Shown here in pieces: positions 2,650 through 8,564 of a stretch of DNA of 36,070 nucleotides; within the stretch, counting starts at the first letter, position 1, and every line of letters starts with the position of its first letter. The DNA comes from a virus. The stretch lies in IMG/VR virus record IMGVR_UViG_3300045988_179149, positions 1 to 36,070 of that record, one strand, 5' to 3'. Under the pieces are notes generated by a model that was not told where the DNA came from, did not search any database, and worked only from the letters and a program-made list of their open reading frames with translations. Position numbers and translations under genes: made by a program.

Positions 2650-3057
2650 TTAATGGTTGATTCTTTCCCAAAGCTCCGGAGCCGTATCGGGCTCAGATCC
2701 GATACGGGGCGCATGCGTCTGCAGACACTTGTACAGATCGCCTCCATATGCCACGCGCGCGCCAGCGGCATACGAGGCCTCGCCCACATACCACGGCCGG
2801 ATGAGCTGGGGCACCTTCAGCGCGTCCTCATCACCGAGAGTCTCGGCGGACATGGCAGCAAGCCGCACCGCGTCATCGCGCACCCCGTCCGGCACGACAC
2901 TCCATACTTGGTAGATGGAACCGCCCCGCTGCTCATACGCCATGTCCGCCTTGAAACCCTCGGGGACCTCAGGCTCATCAGACGCGAGAATCGGGAGACC
3001 CCTCCCGTCTGTCGCCAGGCGCACTGCGGGCCCGACAAGGGTCCCGATCAATGCCAT
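2650..3057 (-). CDS. Paralogue of 2072..2641 with one ChtBD3-like repeat (135 aa)
   Basis: ATG after AAAGGAG. Shares TDG-GLPI...YEQ..G-I-QVW-VVPD...DALKVP with its neighbour. Repeat YAAGARVAYGGDLYKC...LW. Confidence 0.6.
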   Translation of the reverse strand: MALIGTLVGPAVRLATDGRGLPILASDEPEVPEGFKADMAYEQRGGSIYQVWSVVPDGVRDDAVRLAAMSAETLGDEDALKVPQLIRPWYVGEASYAAGARVAYGGDLYKCLQTHAPRIGSEPDTAPELWERINH

Positions 3058-3153
3058 TTAGACTCCTTTCTCTCGACCTCTCGTGGCAGAAATCCCACGC
3101 GCGTATCCTCTCCTTGAGAGCCCACGCGTCTGGGATTTACGGGATTGGAGACC

Positions 3154-4026
3154 ATGATGAAAGTTGCAGAGGCCGCCTCGAGGTACATGGACGACAAGCG
3201 CGGCAGGCTGCGCGCCTGCACCCTGGCCGGATACGAGAGCGCGCTAGCGCTGCACGTCCTACCTCGCTGGGGCGAGCTGGAACTCGAGTCGATAACGCCC
3301 GAGGGCGTACAGGGCTGGATTGATTCGTTTGATCTGCCGGGGGCCGCCGAAAAGGCGTACAAGACCCTGCGGCAGGTTATCCGCTGGGCCATCCGCCGTC
3401 TCGGTGTGCGGATGTACGACCCCACCGCCGCCGGTGTCGAGCTACCGCACAAGCCGGCGCACCGCCCACGCACGATGGAGGCGAGCCAGGTCCGTGCCTA
3501 CCTCCGCGCGCTGTGGGGACACGAGTGCGAGGCAGTCGCAATCTGCTCGGTAACCCTCGGGCTGAGGCGCGGCGAGGCGTGCGGCCTCAAGTGGTCGGAC
3601 ATCGACCTGCGCACCGGCGAGGTCCGCATCCGCCGTTCGAGGCAAGTCGTGCGCGGCAATGAGGTCGTCGAGGCGCCGAAGACCGAGCGCTCCGCGCGGT
3701 CCTGCTGGCTCCCCCGCTTCGCCGTCAAGCGCCTGCGCGCGCTGCGAAAGGGCCGCTCGGGCTGGCTGTGCGAACTGTCGCCCGACGCCATCGCGCGGCG
3801 CATCAAGTCCGCATGTCGCCAAGCCGGAGCCGCCTGGACCTCGATGACGGAATGCCGCCACACGTGGGCGACGCTCGCCGTGGAGGCTGGGGTCGGCATC
3901 GAGACCGTGGCCATGATGCTGGGGCACACCGATATCGGCACGGCATACGAGCACTACATCGTGCCGAGGCCGCGCATCTGCAAGGATGCGCAGCGCGAGG
4001 TCGAGCGGCTGATACTGGGCGGGTGA
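3154..4026 (+). CDS. Tyrosine recombinase, putative shufflon-specific (Rci-like role)
   Basis: Catalytic signature: LGLRRGEACGL (Arg), ECRHTWATL (R-H box), LGHTDIGTAYEHY (His and Tyr). Opposite strand to all neighbours. Its stop TGA (4024-4026) overlaps site R1. The start may be 3145, 3154 or 3157. Confidence 0.85.
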   Translation: MMKVAEAASRYMDDKRGRLRACTLAGYESALALHVLPRWGELELESITPEGVQGWIDSFDLPGAAEKAYKTLRQVIRWAIRRLGVRMYDPTAAGVELPHKPAHRPRTMEASQVRAYLRALWGHECEAVAICSVTLGLRRGEACGLKWSDIDLRTGEVRIRRSRQVVRGNEVVEAPKTERSARSCWLPRFAVKRLRALRKGRSGWLCELSPDAIARRIKSACRQAGAAWTSMTECRHTWATLAVEAGVGIETVAMMLGHTDIGTAYEHYIVPRPRICKDAQREVERLILGG

Positions 4027-4037
4027 TTCTGTATCCC
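4025..4037 (+). repeat. Shufflon site R1
   Basis: tGATTCTGTATCCCtcc; overlaps the recombinase stop codon. Confidence 0.85.
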
Positions 4038-4270
4038 TCCCTGCTATCACGGTGCAAAGAATTGACGGAAATGTCGGCGCCAGCATAACCGCCCCATCTA
4101 TCGATGGATACTCTTTTGCAGCATGGATAGCTTGCATATCAAGCGGATGGGTTGGCAGTGCCTATATCGAAAAGCCACTAGATAAAATATCGAGGACATG
4201 GATGGTGTCGAAGCGGTGGGAGTCAAGCGAGACGGCAATTGCGTGCTATGCCCTTTATGTGCGACAGTGA
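4025..4270 (+). other. Silent fibre C-terminal cassette 1 (81 codons, no own start)
   Basis: In frame from R1: DSVSLPAITVQRIDGNVGAS...CYALYVRQ*. Contains track ORF 4052..4270. Confidence 0.75.
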
Positions 4271-4281
4271 TTCTGTATCCC
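4269..4281 (+). repeat. Shufflon site R2
   Basis: tGATTCTGTATCCCtga; overlaps the TGA stop of cassette 1. Confidence 0.85.
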
Positions 4282-4613
4282 TGACAGCAACGAACGACTT
4301 TTGGAAGGTTCGTCACGCCTGCAGGACAATTGGAAAAATAGCAGTACTGTCAGTCCACGCCACTCGCGTCGACAATAACTGGGTCAACGCTCAGGCTTGG
4401 GAGAGGTCGCAGGTTTTGGCGTACCCACCGGAGTTGGCTCCGGTGGGAGGCGAAGTGCTGGCGCCTGCCATCAGCAGTGTCTCTTCGGATGGCCATACCG
4501 ACTGCTTGGGCATAAACGTCGACTCCAGGGGCATCAACGTCAGGATTGTCAGGCAGTGCACCATTCCATCGGGCGCTTGGGTCTCCGGAGTCCTAGTCTG
4601 GCCGATCGCTTAG
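4269..4613 (+). other. Silent fibre C-terminal cassette 2 (114 codons)
   Basis: In frame from R2: DSVSLTATNDFWKVRHACRT...GVLVWPIA*. Same frame as track ORF 4239..4613. Confidence 0.75.
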
Positions 4614-4626
4614 CATTCTGTATCCC
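4614..4626 (+). repeat. Shufflon site R3
   Basis: tagCATTCTGTATCCCgtg; abuts the TAG stop of cassette 2. Confidence 0.85.
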
Positions 4627-4895
4627 GTGCGCCGAGAATTTTTGTCGGTAACAAGATCGTACAATTCAACAATGGGAAGGTCACGACGCTTTGGAACAAG
4701 GCGGACTTTGAGCGGGAGTTCGGGCGTTGCTTCGATAATTCCCGCGATTCCGTTTACGGGATGAACGGTGATGCGGTCTTCGACTTCATGGTTGATGCCG
4801 TAAATTTCTACCCGCGCACCGAGGAGCTCGTCGTCGCAATCAGCGGTGCGCACACTGGCCCATTCCGTGTGAATTACATCGTGGTGATGGGCTAG
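4614..4895 (+). other. Silent fibre C-terminal cassette 3 (93 codons)
   Basis: In frame from R3: HSVSRAPRIFVGNKIVQFNNGK...GPFRVNYIVVMG*. It has no Met, so it is absent from the ORF track. Homologous to cassette 6. Confidence 0.75.
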
Positions 4896-4908
4896 GATTC
4901 TGTATCCC
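4896..4908 (+). repeat. Shufflon site R4
   Basis: tagGATTCTGTATCCCcga; abuts the TAG stop of cassette 3. Confidence 0.85.
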
Positions 4909-5195
4909 CGAGGGTCGTGGGGCAGACAAACGCCGGAAAGCTGTATCAGCCTTTCCGGTGCGACCTCCCATTGGACAGGATGGCGGCGCTCATCTGCATC
5001 TACGACAACGGGCGCCCGCTGGCGTCGACTGTATTCCCCATATCCGTCTTCGCGCAATACTGCACCGGCTCAGGGGTTTGCGCCGACTGCTATTACAGCC
5101 CGGGCGGTTTCGGCGTCCACGCCTACTATACGGGCGGCATGCTCTACCTTATGGCTGACGCCAACATATACAAAGCAGCATTCGTCGTGTTTTAG
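4896..5195 (+). other. Silent fibre C-terminal cassette 4 (99 codons)
   Basis: In frame from R4: DSVSPRVVGQTNAGKLYQPF...IYKAAFVVF*. Contains track ORF 4917..5195. Confidence 0.75.
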
Positions 5196-5467
5196 GTACA
5201 GACCACGGCCTGGCCGGAGAAGTTTCCTGACGTCGCGGAGAAACAGAAGACGGCTCCATTTGTGTCGATCTTGACGTAGCCTGAGGCACTGCCCACGTTA
5301 AGACATCCGATTGCCTCCGTCACCGGTTTAAAAGGCAGATGGCAAACGATGCGACCGGTATTTCCCGTAAGAGAGATGTTTTTCAGCTGGACGACAACGG
5401 TGCGCCCGATGCCGACACAAGTGACGCCGTCGGCTGGAGCCGTGAGGACGGCTTGGGATACAGAATG
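5192..5467 (-). other. Silent fibre C-terminal cassette 5 (91 codons)
   Basis: In frame from R5: HSVSQAVLTAPADGVTCVGIGRTVVVQLKN...FSGQAVVCT*. It has no Met, so it is not in the ORF track. Its stop overlaps the cassette 4 stop. Confidence 0.75.
5455..5467 (-). repeat. Shufflon site R5
   Basis: The minus strand reads tagCATTCTGTATCCCaag. It is head-to-head with R6 across a 21-nt spacer. Confidence 0.85.
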
Positions 5468-5488
5468 CTATACGTTTACCGTTCCCAG

Positions 5489-5501
5489 CATTCTGTATCC
5501 C
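5489..5501 (+). repeat. Shufflon site R6
   Basis: cagCATTCTGTATCCCaaa. Confidence 0.85.
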
Positions 5502-5779
5502 AAAACGAGTATCCCAAGGTCATATGCGGCTCAGTGGTGCGCAACGCGAGTGGCTTCAATGCTGTGATGGTGTTCAGCTCGGAGCAGTTTAAGGAGATCG
5601 CGGGGAGGGCGTTCGACAACAGCAAAGACTGCATCTCGGTCATAAACGCGGACGGTAACGCGAGCGGCGCCGTCGTCACGGGCGTCATCTACGACCCGAA
5701 CACGAAGCACATTGATGCCCATCTGAGCGGCACGACCTACGCCATAAGGCTGAATTACATCATCACATTGGGGGCCTAG
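5489..5779 (+). other. Silent fibre C-terminal cassette 6 (96 codons)
   Basis: In frame from R6: HSVSQNEYPKVICGSVVRNASGF...YAIRLNYIITLGA*. This is the 3' part of track ORF 5339..5779. Confidence 0.75.
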
Positions 5780-6099
5780 GCGAGGATAACCAGACCGTAC
5801 AGGTCGGTAGTCGCCGCCGCCCCATAGCCGCTTCCGCTGACGCGCACGATGCCGTTGGTACCGATAGATGCCGTCGTTGTCCCGACGTATGTGGTGGCGA
5901 CCATGAGCCTGCCCCACAGACGAACAGTGGTCTCCAGATGGAACGGAAGGATGAACTCGGCGTACGCGGGCGTAGGGTTCAGGGTACGCTGGATCGTCAG
6001 CATATAGTTGTCGCGTTCGATATGAACGAGTGAATAGTTCCATCCCTCGGCAATCCCGCTGCGGTCGAGCGACGGGTCGCGGCCTTGGGATACAGAATG
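5776..6099 (-). other. Silent fibre C-terminal cassette 7 (107 codons)
   Basis: In frame from R7: HSVSQGRDPSLDRSGIAEGWNYSLVHIERDNYMLTIQ...LYGLVILA*. Contains track ORF 5776..6003. Its stop overlaps the cassette 6 stop in CCTAGG. Confidence 0.75.
6087..6099 (-). repeat. Shufflon site R7
   Basis: The minus strand reads tagCATTCTGTATCCCaag. It abuts the TAG stop (6100-6102) of the expressed fibre gene. Confidence 0.85.
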
Positions 6100-6909
6100 C
6101 TATATGCCGGCTATCCACACGATGAACGCGGAGACATCCGAATTGATATTGGAACTGTCTCCGCTGCCAACCCTAATCTTTCCAGTGTTGCCGTCAATGA
6201 TGAGGCGAGCATTGGCGTTTGGGTAGGCATACGCAGGAGCCTGAAGCTCTTTTTTCGGCCTCTTATCAAGCGGTAGGACGTAAGGGCAGTCTTTCAGAGT
6301 CCAACCGCTTCCGGTTACCTTGACGCTCTTCGCGATGACTGTACAGAACATCCCGGAGCTCACTATGAGCCACGAGGCATCAGAGTAAAGCACTGTCGGG
6401 GATACAGAATCCCCGAGGTCTGCCAGCGGGGTCAGCTCGGGGATGAGAAGCTTGGGCTGGCCCGTGGTCAGCCCGTCGAATGTCACCGAGCAGATCGGGA
6501 CCGTCACGTCGGCGTCACCGTCCAGGATGGAGCCTTTCGGCACCGACGGCGCGGCGGCGCTCGAGCCGGGGGTTCCCTGGAGAACCTTCCACTCAACCGT
6601 CTCGACAAGGGTCGGGCTGGACCCGCTCACATCGCGGGTGTAATGGACGCAAATGTAGTCCATGCGCTTCTTGCCTTGCGAGCCGCTCGCCACCTTGACG
6701 TCCTCGGGCGCGGTGACACCGATTTGGCGACCCTGCACGATCATGTCGCCGGTCGCGATACGGACGGTGTTCGCGTCGACGAGAGATGGGGCAAGTTTGC
6801 CGCCCGTCTGCAGCACATAGCTGCCAGTGCCGACTTCACCCGCAATGCGGCGCCCGTCGTCGGCCGAGCTGACGTGTGGCACGCCCGCTTTGCCGGTCAC
6901 AATCTCCAT
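6100..6909 (-). CDS. Tail fibre / receptor-binding protein, currently expressed isoform (constant aa 1-166 plus cassette 8, aa 167-269)
   Basis: ATG abuts the upstream TAA. It is the last structural gene of the tail module. R8 lies in frame at codon 167. Confidence 0.8.
   Translation of the reverse strand: MEIVTGKAGVPHVSSADDGRRIAGEVGTGSYVLQTGGKLAPSLVDANTVRIATGDMIVQGRQIGVTAPEDVKVASGSQGKKRMDYICVHYTRDVSGSSPTLVETVEWKVLQGTPGSSAAAPSVPKGSILDGDADVTVPICSVTFDGLTTGQPKLLIPELTPLADLGDSVSPTVLYSDASWLIVSSGMFCTVIAKSVKVTGSGWTLKDCPYVLPLDKRPKKELQAPAYAYPNANARLIIDGNTGKIRVGSGDSSNINSDVSAFIVWIAGI
6399..6411 (-). repeat. Shufflon site R8 (inside the expressed fibre gene, codons 167-170 DSVS)
   Basis: The minus strand reads gggGATTCTGTATCCCcga. 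It marks the boundary between the constant N-terminal 166 codons and the variable C-terminus. Confidence 0.85.
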
Positions 6910-7153: not shown

Positions 7154-7405
7154 CTAGGCCTTATAGGTGTACAGGTTTCCGGTCGAGGCGTCGATGTACA
7201 CCGAGCCGACCACCGCGACGCCGCTCGGGGCGCCGGTTCCCGCAGTGACGGAGGTGCCGTCCGCGCCCTTCGGGCCCGTCGGGCCGGTCGGGCCCTGGGA
7301 GCCCGTGGCGCCCTTCTCTCCCTGCGGGCCCCGCGGTCCGGTCTCGCCGGTGGCGCCCCTGTCGCCCTTGGGCCCCTTGAGCGAGCCGATGTTCGTCCAT
7401 GCCAT
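7154..7405 (-). CDS. Collagen-like fibre protein (83 aa)
   Basis: [35 protein letters not shown]... ending [15 protein letters not shown]. Confidence 0.7.
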
Positions 7406-7420
7406 GATGAGCTCCTTTCG

Positions 7421-8098
7421 CTAGACCGTCTGGCCGTACTGGTAGACCTTGAAGCCGTCGGCGGTGTCGATGTAGACCGCGCCCTCCTGCGAGGCGGACG
7501 TAGGAGCACCCTGGCCGAAGGTAATGCCGGGACCAGCCGGGCCCTGCGCGCCCGTGGCGCCCTTCTCGCCCCTGTCCCCCGTAGCGCCCTTCTCGCCCCT
7601 GTCTCCCTTAGGGCCCTTCATCTCGCCGAGGTCTGTCCACTGGGCGTCGCCGGACATCGACGTCTTGACCCACATGTGGCCGTTATCGCTCGTGACGTAG
7701 GTGTCGCCGACCGCCGCATCTGCAGGCAGGGCGTTCTTGTCGGCGACGGCGCCCTTGACGGTGATGGACGTGCCGTCGGCGCCCTTCTCGCCTGCGTCGC
7801 CCTTGGGGCCCTGCGGGCCCTTGACGCTTACGCCCTCGACGGCTTCGCCGACGTGCGCGGTGCTGCCCGCCAAGTCCACGGACGCAATGGCGTACACGTC
7901 GCCGTTGACGTCGATGACCACGTCGCCGACCTGTACGCCGTCGGCAGGCTTGAGCGCGGAGAAGGCAACGTCGCTGTTGCTCTTCACGTCGATGTTCGCG
8001 ACCCTGACGCTGCCGCCCTTGGCGCCCGTCGCGCCGGTCGCGCCCCTCGGCCCCTGCGGGCCCATGAGCGTGCCGACCTGGTTCCATGCGTTAGCCAT
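7421..8098 (-). CDS. Collagen-like fibre protein (225 aa) with three G-X-Y blocks
   Basis: MANAWNQVGTLMGPQGPRGATGATGAKG..., [48 protein letters not shown]; ends VYIDTADGFKVYQY. Confidence 0.7.
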   Translation of the reverse strand: MANAWNQVGTLMGPQGPRGATGATGAKGGSVRVANIDVKSNSDVAFSALKPADGVQVGDVVIDVNGDVYAIASVDLAGSTAHVGEAVEGVSVKGPQGPKGDAGEKGADGTSITVKGAVADKNALPADAAVGDTYVTSDNGHMWVKTSMSGDAQWTDLGEMKGPKGDRGEKGATGDRGEKGATGAQGPAGPGITFGQGAPTSASQEGAVYIDTADGFKVYQYGQTV

Positions 8099-8564
8099 TT
8101 GTATCTCCAATCTCGCCGTAGCGATAATAGGTGCCAGTCTCACTGTCGAGGTAGAGGTCCCCGACGCGACCACCTATGGCGGGGGTGCCGCCCCCGACAT
8201 ACCACTTCGTGCCGGGTTCGCCTGCGGACTTCAGCTGCTCTCGCACCCAATCTTCGACATCAGCCCAGGTCTTGACCTCGTCATCGGTGTAGATGTAGCC
8301 GTCCGGCTTGGCCCTCGGGCGCACCTTGAGCACGGCGCGCGCGTGCGTGTCGCGCCCATCGCTCGCCCAAACGGCCATGTCAACACCCGCAGTAAGCAGG
8401 AGCGAGGGCACCACGGCCTCGCCGCCCACGACCGGGACGACCAATGCGCGCTCCGATCCGGCGACGGCGAAATGTGCCTCCGTCACCCCCTGCAACGCGA
8501 TGTGAACGCGCCGACCCGTATCCCATTGGTAAAGGGGCGGGCCGATGAGCTCTATCTGCTTCAT
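8091..8564 (-). CDS. Baseplate/fibre-associated structural protein (157 aa)
   Basis: ATG after AGGAGA. The C-terminus GDLYLDSETGTYYRY shares the YxD..TG..Y.Y motif with the two downstream fibre proteins. Confidence 0.5.
   Translation of the reverse strand: MKQIELIGPPLYQWDTGRRVHIALQGVTEAHFAVAGSERALVVPVVGGEAVVPSLLLTAGVDMAVWASDGRDTHARAVLKVRPRAKPDGYIYTDDEVKTWADVEDWVREQLKSAGEPGTKWYVGGGTPAIGGRVGDLYLDSETGTYYRYGEIGDTNG

Follow-up and report, generated by a model that had tools for sequence, protein, structure and literature searches.

A very likely Rin-type shufflon in a Collinsella siphovirus prophage and the two left-arm classes of its crossover sites

INTRODUCTION

The Rin shufflon was described in prophages of Bifidobacterium breve and Bifidobacterium longum, where an armless tyrosine invertase accompanies a constant region, Rc, of 168 amino acids (aa) and variable regions, Rv, of 95–100 aa (Mavrich et al., 2018, PMC6109161). 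Its rix sites are 11 bp long, were called "asymmetric," and read TTCCCTAACCC (PMC6109161). A Rin shufflon has also been reported in Eggerthella lenta clade-1 prophages (PMC8778435). Here we analyze a viral DNA of 36,070 nucleotides (nt; IMG/VR record IMGVR_UViG_3300045988_179149), hereafter called the window, in which short repeated sites separate alternative C-terminal cassettes of a receptor-binding protein (RBP) gene. The region is very likely a Rin-type shufflon of a Collinsella siphovirus prophage, with short sites that are recombined by an XerD-like tyrosine recombinase.

The shufflon of plasmid R64 is the other system of reference. In its sfx sites, a 7-bp spacer separates two 12-bp arms, one variable and one conserved (PMC11852207). 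This asymmetry has been proposed to restrict the recombinase Rci to inversions, and excisions occur when sfx sites are made artificially symmetric (PMC11852207, citing Gyohda 2002, 2006). The R64 model assigns the inversion-only effect to the extra C-terminal domain of Rci (PMC11852207).

RESULTS

An array of eight sites and eight cassettes

The array lies between a tyrosine recombinase gene (3145–4026, + strand) and a gene of 269 aa (6909–6100, − strand) that encodes the RBP. The 12-bp sequence ATTCTGTATCCC was present in eight exact copies within 2.4 kb, on the + strand at 4026, 4270, 4615, 4897, and 5490 and on the − strand at 5455, 6087, and 6399, and nowhere else in the 36 kb. With up to two mismatches there were nine matches, against 0.88 expected; none of 100 shuffled sequences reached nine. 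Read in the orientation of this core, each site opens an open reading frame (ORF) of 81–114 codons starting with (D/H)SVS. The stop codons of the cassette ORFs abut or overlap the following site, as a preliminary description of this DNA had stated; the TGA at R1 is the stop of the recombinase, and R6 has none. The features of the region are the following (P numbers are RBP homologues).

3145..4026, + strand: putative Rin-type tyrosine recombinase (invertase), 293 aa; ends in a TGA that overlaps site R1
4026..4037, + strand: site R1, recombinase-proximal, silent; left flank GTG, right flank TCC
4038..4270, + strand: cassette 1, silent; not seen expressed in any of the 120 listed homologues
4270..4281, + strand: site R2, silent; overlapped by the TGA of cassette 1
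4282..4613, + strand: cassette 2, silent; expressed in P0046
4615..4626, + strand: site R3, silent; left flank TAGC
4627..4895, + strand: cassette 3, silent; expressed in P0102 and P0029
4897..4908, + strand: site R4, silent; left flank TAGG
4909..5195, + strand: cassette 4, silent; expressed in P0021 and P0030
5192..5454, − strand: cassette 5, silent; expressed in P0012 and P0035
5455..5466, − strand: site R5, silent; left flank TAGC
5467..5489, no strand: 23-bp segment between head-to-head R5 and R6; left arm of both sites (GCT...AGC), no cassette
5490..5501, + strand: site R6, silent; left flank CAGC, without a stop codon
5502..5779, + strand: cassette 6, silent; expressed in P0045
5509..5519, + strand: GTATCCCAAGG, half-site-like copy in cassette 6, 7 nt past the R6 core; encodes (E)-Y-P-K
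5776..6086, − strand: cassette 7, silent; expressed in P0098
6087..6098, − strand: site R7, silent; left flank TAGC, its TAG being the stop of the currently expressed gene
6100..6398, − strand: cassette 8, currently expressed (103 aa with DSVS)
6396..6416, − strand: near-palindrome of 21 bp around R8, TCGGGGATTC-T-GTATCCCCGA; 9 of 10 arm positions complementary
6399..6410, − strand: site R8, expression site within the RBP gene; junction codon GAT (Asp167) at 6411–6409
6411..6909, − strand: constant N-terminal part of the RBP/tail-fibre protein, 166 aa, supported by homologues; PHROG 9994 matches residues 1–171

The convergent cassettes 6 and 7 overlap through their stop codons in a common CCTAGG (TAG on the + strand at 5777–5779, on the − strand at 5776–5778), and cassettes 4 and 5 overlap likewise (5192–5195).

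Natural isoforms and re-pairing of flanks

The expressed RBP had 352 homologues, many of them 95–99% identical over the first ~170 residues (the N-terminal ~63%–65% of the query) with unrelated C-termini. The named ones came from Collinsella aerofaciens, and one was annotated as "receptor binding protein." The RBP matched no Pfam or NCBIfam family; its sole PDB match was weak and was to a receptor-binding protein (E 0.0098). Isoforms and junction residues were counted in the 120 listed homologues. Seven of the eight window cassettes occurred there fused to the constant region in other genomes, every time with Asp. At R8, the junction of the window protein reads Leu-Gly-Asp followed by Ser-Val-Ser, and Asp167 was present in all 120. 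Cassettes 3, 5, 6, and 7, which are preceded by CAT in the window, carry Asp when they are expressed elsewhere. The predictions that the expressed protein always has Asp at the junction and that the His codons of silent cassettes are never read were therefore correct.

Related loci were found through the recombinase. The Collinsella-type set contained ~75 loci that carry the same site and have recombinases of 54%–99% identity, with L043 added at 35%; they stem from gut viral contigs and from genomes of Collinsella, Olsenella, Enteroscipio, and related Coriobacteriia. The Bifidobacterium-type set contained 80 loci, of which 76 were used to count the polymorphism at core position 1; its expression sites numbered 54. 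Counts below refer to the first set unless the second is named. In the Collinsella-type loci, the tyrosine recombinase gene always ended at the first site, and a single left flank could be followed, with the switch exactly at the core, by as many as 12 different right flanks, and vice versa. This re-pairing bears out the proposal that the repeats are recombinase crossover sites of a multi-cassette inversion system. Four loci (L006, L007, L008, and L013) hold one cassette set in rearranged versions, and L020 and L035 are rearranged relatives of the window; in L020, the 23-bp R5/R6 segment is inverted relative to its partner cassettes.

The contig ended 0–115 nt past a core in 26 of the 75 loci (e.g., L002, L003, L016, L021, L023, L024, L028, and L030), with a mode of 42–43 nt. 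Ends at 12 + 43 = 55 nt point to branch points of a de Bruijn graph produced by several arrangements within one sample, and so the breaks after cores indicate a probable heterogeneity of the shufflon within samples. Flank re-pairing and contig breaks together reveal inversions at the repeats that give different isoforms between genomes.

The core is in frame at the start of every cassette, as it would be if the repeats were just a conserved coding motif (Asp/His-Ser-Val-Ser) inherited through cassette duplication, with no site-specific recombination. We give this explanation almost no credence. Conservation is at the nucleotide level and includes synonymous positions and noncoding copies such as the left side of R6, the new pairings of identical flanks in dozens of genomes meet exactly at the core, where contigs break as well, and the first site always coincides with the end of the tyrosine recombinase gene.

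In L034, two sites with identical flanks (134–400 and 2933–3200) lie ~2.8 kb apart, pointing to duplication of a block around the recombinase or to an assembly repeat there.

Strand exchange occurs within core positions 2–11

The preliminary description assigned the G/C before the core (position −1) to the left flank, and in the 75 loci this base did follow the left flank. The flank of the expression site had G in 15 of 15 sites with eight partners, the recombinase-end flank "tagga" had A in 15 of 15 with five partners, and a single right flank could have A, C, or G at −1. The left flank also carries position 1 of the core with it: silent sites in L100 and L103 read TTTCCG, the expression site there reads ATTCCG, and one cassette was found in both states. 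In the Bifidobacterium-type set, position 1 was A or T within 59 of the 76 loci, yet A in 54 of 54 expression sites. At the other end of the core, T12 accompanied one right flank in seven of seven cases with three left partners, so that position 12 goes with the right flank. Since position 1 follows the left flank and position 12 the right flank, strands are exchanged within core positions 2–11.

The core had been called invariant. This holds inside the window, where all eight copies are identical, but not beyond it, because related loci use ATTCCGTATCCC or ATTCCATATCCC. Positions 5–6 are TG, CG, or CA between loci and uniform over the shufflon sites inside each locus; the exceptions, in L043 and L110, are one stray variant match each. 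These positions vary despite recombinases that are up to 99% identical (the window and L001; compare L102 and L104). Freedom between loci and fixation within them is the signature expected of an overlap that must match between partners and is not read by the protein.

The left arms are conserved and fall in two classes

According to the preliminary description, the sites had an invariant core, a conserved right arm after it, and unrelated left arms. This geometry proved wrong. Its listing of the bases after the core is correct as read: CCCAA in R5, R6, and R7, CCCCGA in R4 and R8, CCCT in R1 and R2, and CCCG in R3. These subclasses are the first codons of the cassettes (Gln, Pro, Leu, and Arg). 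Over 162 non-redundant right flanks, positions 13–24 carried only 0.0–0.4 bits, and no arm extends past core position 12. The after-core bases were considered as a recombinase arm and rejected, CGA/CGAG being no commoner than AAG/AGG. It follows that the 8-bp arms of R8 are partly a coincidence between the left arm of the expression site and the first codons of this cassette.

An additional copy of the presumed right arm had been noted near R6. The sequence GTATCCCAAGG is indeed present at 5509–5519; a role as an arm or as an accessory or secondary site was rejected, as it lacks core positions 1–5, encodes Tyr-Pro-Lys, and showed no recombination junction in any related locus compared. As coding sequence, it has been kept in P0045 (DSVSQNEYPK) and P0101 (DSVSQDKYPK), and it aligns with Ala-Pro-Arg of the related cassette 3.

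Conservation 5′ of the core, which the preliminary description denied, was evident in both kinds of site. Two classes of left arm can be told apart: silent sites have TAGC, and the near-symmetric expression site has NGGG. Within the window, (A/G)G(C/G) occupies positions −3 to −1 in six of the eight sites, and R5, R6, and R7 have 17 bp, AGCATTCTGTATCCCAA, in common. Silent left flanks read T-A-G-C/G at −4 to −1, with 1.0–1.3 bits at −4 to −2 (125 non-redundant flanks), and at −1 they have C in 77 cases against 32 with the palindromic G. The expression class (25 non-redundant flanks, including a few misassigned sites) has G at −2 in 25 of 25 and at −3 in 23 of 25. Together, the conserved block runs from −4 to 12 and has its dyad axis at core position 5. 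In the 80 Bifidobacterium-type loci, whose recombinase is 43% identical, these two classes recur as TGGG+A and TAGC+T/A.

Coding explains part of this pattern. Among the 81 silent left flanks that carry a stop codon, 67 had TAG, 14 TGA, and none TAA, whereas the genes of the window use the three in a ratio of 12/8/5; the lack of TAA and the excess of TAG imply that G at −2 is under selection. AGC is also retained on the noncoding side of head-to-head pairs such as R6, where the 23-bp segment keeps it though no stop codon is required there. At expression sites, Asp is preceded by a GGG, CGG, TGG, or CAG codon (Gly, Arg, Trp, or Gln), so that the residue changes while G is kept at −3 and −2; in the codons farther upstream, synonymous positions vary freely.

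Deletions between sites

Two kinds of difference were seen between related prophages. In L008 as compared with L007, two cassette units that lie between two direct silent sites are precisely lost or gained. From an L013-like arrangement to L017, L018, and L019, the segment between two inverted sites was lost, leaving a site with two left arms. Such hybrid sites occur in L005, L017, L018, L019, L022, L037, and L040 (e.g., L017:7215 and L019:6885) and consist of ATTCTGTATCCT continuing into the "CIWIAN* TAGG" cassette end in reverse complement. Loss of the segment that held the convergent cassettes, flanked by two inverted sites, accounts for them, and L013 shows the precursor arrangement. The hybrid site was later joined to three different left flanks, which implies that the reversed TAGG-AT left arm can act as a right arm.

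By analogy with R64, the preliminary description proposed that a single conserved arm plus spacer, with unrelated left arms, restricts the system to inversions and shields the direct sites R5, R7, and R8 (and, by extension, the tandem R1–R4) from deletion. Its account of sfx (7-bp spacer, one conserved arm, inversion only) agrees with the literature (PMC11852207), and the precedent that symmetric sfx sites give excisions is real. Mavrich et al. explicitly leave unanswered how their system escapes deletion between direct rix sites (PMC6109161). Long arrays, with as many as 10 cassettes and many of these in tandem, persist (L102 and L104), and the silent left arms are far less constrained than CCC and depart from its mirror image at −1 and −3. 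The variable 12-bp left arm and conserved 12-bp right arm around a 7-bp spacer are, however, missing: nothing is conserved as an arm beyond the 12-bp core, and the left arms are TAGC or NGGG rather than unrelated. The near-symmetric expression site takes part in every productive switch, and the recombinase lacks the extra C-terminal domain of Rci, as that protein is described in PMC11852207. The two-unit difference between L008 and L007 and the loss between inverted sites in the L018-like loci also speak against it, and we consider such R64-like sites improbable. The precise unit deletions between direct sites show that excision-sense recombination is not absolutely blocked; of the proposed protection, an absolute form is thus contradicted, and relative rates of deletion and inversion cannot be read from genomes.

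Another possibility is that the two site classes work as two tiers, with a symmetric expression site that would be preferred as a "master site" and silent sites that would be weakened half-palindromes, making silent-by-silent events, including deletions in tandem arrays, rare. Both classes are conserved from Collinsella-type to Bifidobacterium-type phages at only 43% recombinase identity, silent sites prefer C over the palindromic G at −1 (77 vs. 32), and the sole left flank known to be used in reverse (in the site formed by a left flank, the core, and the reverse complement of a left flank) is TAGG, the more symmetric variant. On the other hand, coding alone can explain the classes (a stop at silent sites; Gly/Arg/Trp-Asp at the expression site), and the L008/L007 deletion joins two silent sites. 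Arrangements do not distinguish expression-anchored inversions from silent-by-silent events, because inversions anchored at the expression site can yield any arrangement. We consider this explanation possible but less likely than not.

The recombinase

The recombinase is a two-domain tyrosine recombinase of the armless XerD-like kind, located at one end of the array. Its Pfam matches were Phage_integrase (catalytic), SAM_3 (SAM-like), and Phage_int_M (core-binding); no serine recombinase domain of the resolvase/invertase family appeared, the domain searches giving tyrosine-recombinase domains only. It resembles XerA, XerC, and XerD and scores under the cut-offs of these families. The XerD profile aligned at positions 14–268 of 290 with the whole protein, and PDB structures of XerC-like and XerD proteins aligned over residues 73–284, which span the catalytic domain. 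Residues R141/142, K179, R238, H261, and Y271 are invariant among its relatives. Only 22 residues follow the catalytic Tyr271.

The recombinase is 43%–44% identical to those of Bifidobacterium phage PMBT6 (43%) and Siphoviridae sp. ctl617, both of which have the same layout. More distant relatives (22%–30% identity; Ruminococcus/Clostridia loci and others) were discarded, because they had no comparable repeat arrays and look like ordinary integrases. The protein lacks the conserved box-II His of the HxxR motif: where the XerC-like structure has this His, it has Thr235, the alignment shows a gap opposite His244 of XerD, and relatives have T, K, or R at the position of Thr235.

Genomic surroundings

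The RBP gene is the end of a siphovirus tail module with a tape measure, a Sipho_Gp37-like protein, and collagen-like fibres. The − strand fibre genes at 7154–8173, directly upstream of the RBP, contain collagen-like Gly-X-Y repeats, visible as direct repeats with a 9-bp period. In the 25 long ORFs of the window, the stop codons were TAG (12), TGA (8), and TAA (5); TAG as the first choice is unusual given 65% G+C. A DNA search of the 4-kb region against GenBank phages gave no match.

DISCUSSION

Proposed mechanism

From the flank comparison, we propose that the recombinase acts on sites of ~16–17 bp, each made of a left half-site (about −4 to 1), an overlap, and a right half-site, (A)TCCC, that would reach to position 12, with one recombinase monomer presumably bound to each half-site. 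The overlap would be non-palindromic, ~7 bp long, and centred on core position 5, probably TTCYRTA (positions 2–8), and its asymmetry would give the sites their polarity. The left arm NGGG-AT of the expression site mirrors the right arm AT-CCC and makes this site near-symmetric. The silent TAG(C/G)-AT embeds the stop of the preceding cassette and keeps only G at −2 of the mirror image.

Inversion between R8 and an oppositely oriented silent site would replace the C-terminal ~80–110 aa of the RBP. Any + strand site (R1–R4 and R6) could bring its cassette to the constant region in one step, and cassettes 5 and 7 would require a prior inversion. Everything up to core position 1, including the first base of the Asp codon, remains with the left flank. 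As left arms would be permanent, the Asp codon, the recombinase stop at R1, and the stop of every cassette would be preserved through any rearrangement.

It is possible, though doubtful, that this two-tier design of a Rin-type system, and not an Rci-like domain, biases recombination toward expression-by-silent inversions and away from deletions in tandem arrays. If so, it would answer the question of directionality left from the description of Rin.

Several points weigh against our interpretation as a Rin-type shufflon with this site design. We infer the cleavage positions and the overlap length from sequence, and the linkage of position 12 comes mainly from one unusual site family. The conservation of TAG is partly due to the need for a stop codon and to the common ancestry of cassette units; selection on the left arm at the DNA level is argued only by G at −2 and by AGC in noncoding contexts. 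The loci are phylogenetically non-independent, so the counts exceed the true tally of independent events. None of the related loci compared contained rix as published, TTCCCTAACCC, and the presumed homology to the original Rin of Bb423phi1 is argued through the PMBT6 relative and the shared architecture.

Significance

Rin-type shufflons are a barely studied route to host-range change for temperate phages of gut Actinobacteria. The window and ~150 related loci form a natural recombination map, with an exchange window at positions 2–11, a central dinucleotide matched within each locus, and two left-arm classes; this comparative site map is the useful new element. How an armless tyrosine invertase keeps from deleting its tandem cassettes is thereby reduced to a matter of swapping three to four left-arm bases. 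Compact sites of 16–17 bp and small recombinases might also serve as orthogonal shuffling tools beside Rci/sfx.

Comparison with known systems

The phage-borne Min (p15B), Gin (Mu), Cin (P1), and Pin systems likewise switch tail-fibre C-termini and alter host range, and Min is multi-site. Their serine invertases work with an enhancer and Fis at 2-bp crossover cores, in contrast to the tyrosine recombinase here.

The R64/IncI shufflon (Rci, sfx) shares with our locus a tyrosine recombinase, multiple inversion, the swapping of C-termini of a host-recognition protein, sites within coding sequence, and a left half-site that is less conserved than the right. It differs in the extra C-terminal domain described for Rci and in its sites: in sfx, the right arm is conserved over 12 bp and the left arm is fully variable, whereas the sites here have a right half-site of ~5 bp, a consensus left arm, and a near-palindromic version at the expression site. 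Its target is the plasmid pilus adhesin PilV instead of a phage RBP. Inversion-only behaviour was shown experimentally for R64, and the present system is known from sequence alone.

The likeness to Rin is much closer. In both systems, an armless XerD-like tyrosine invertase adjoins the array (PMC6109161), and the RBP has a constant N-terminus, of 168 aa in Rin and 166 aa here, that is joined to one cassette out of several, here of 80–115 aa, which give variable C-termini. A repeat of 11–12 bp precedes each cassette, here in both orientations and rare elsewhere; rix TTCCCTAACCC agrees with TTCTGTATCCC of the window at 8 of 11 positions and with TTCCGTATCCC of its relatives at 9 of 11. Cassettes are tandem and convergent, and inversions separate isolates. 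The differences are the core sequence, the number of cassettes (8 here and up to 10 in relatives), and the host genus, since the literature searched links the system to no Collinsella. The two-class left arm, the dyad at position 5, the exchange window, and the spacer variants between loci do not appear in the available parts of the published descriptions. We therefore place the element in the known, little-studied Rin system, of which it would be a member in a new host genus, Collinsella.

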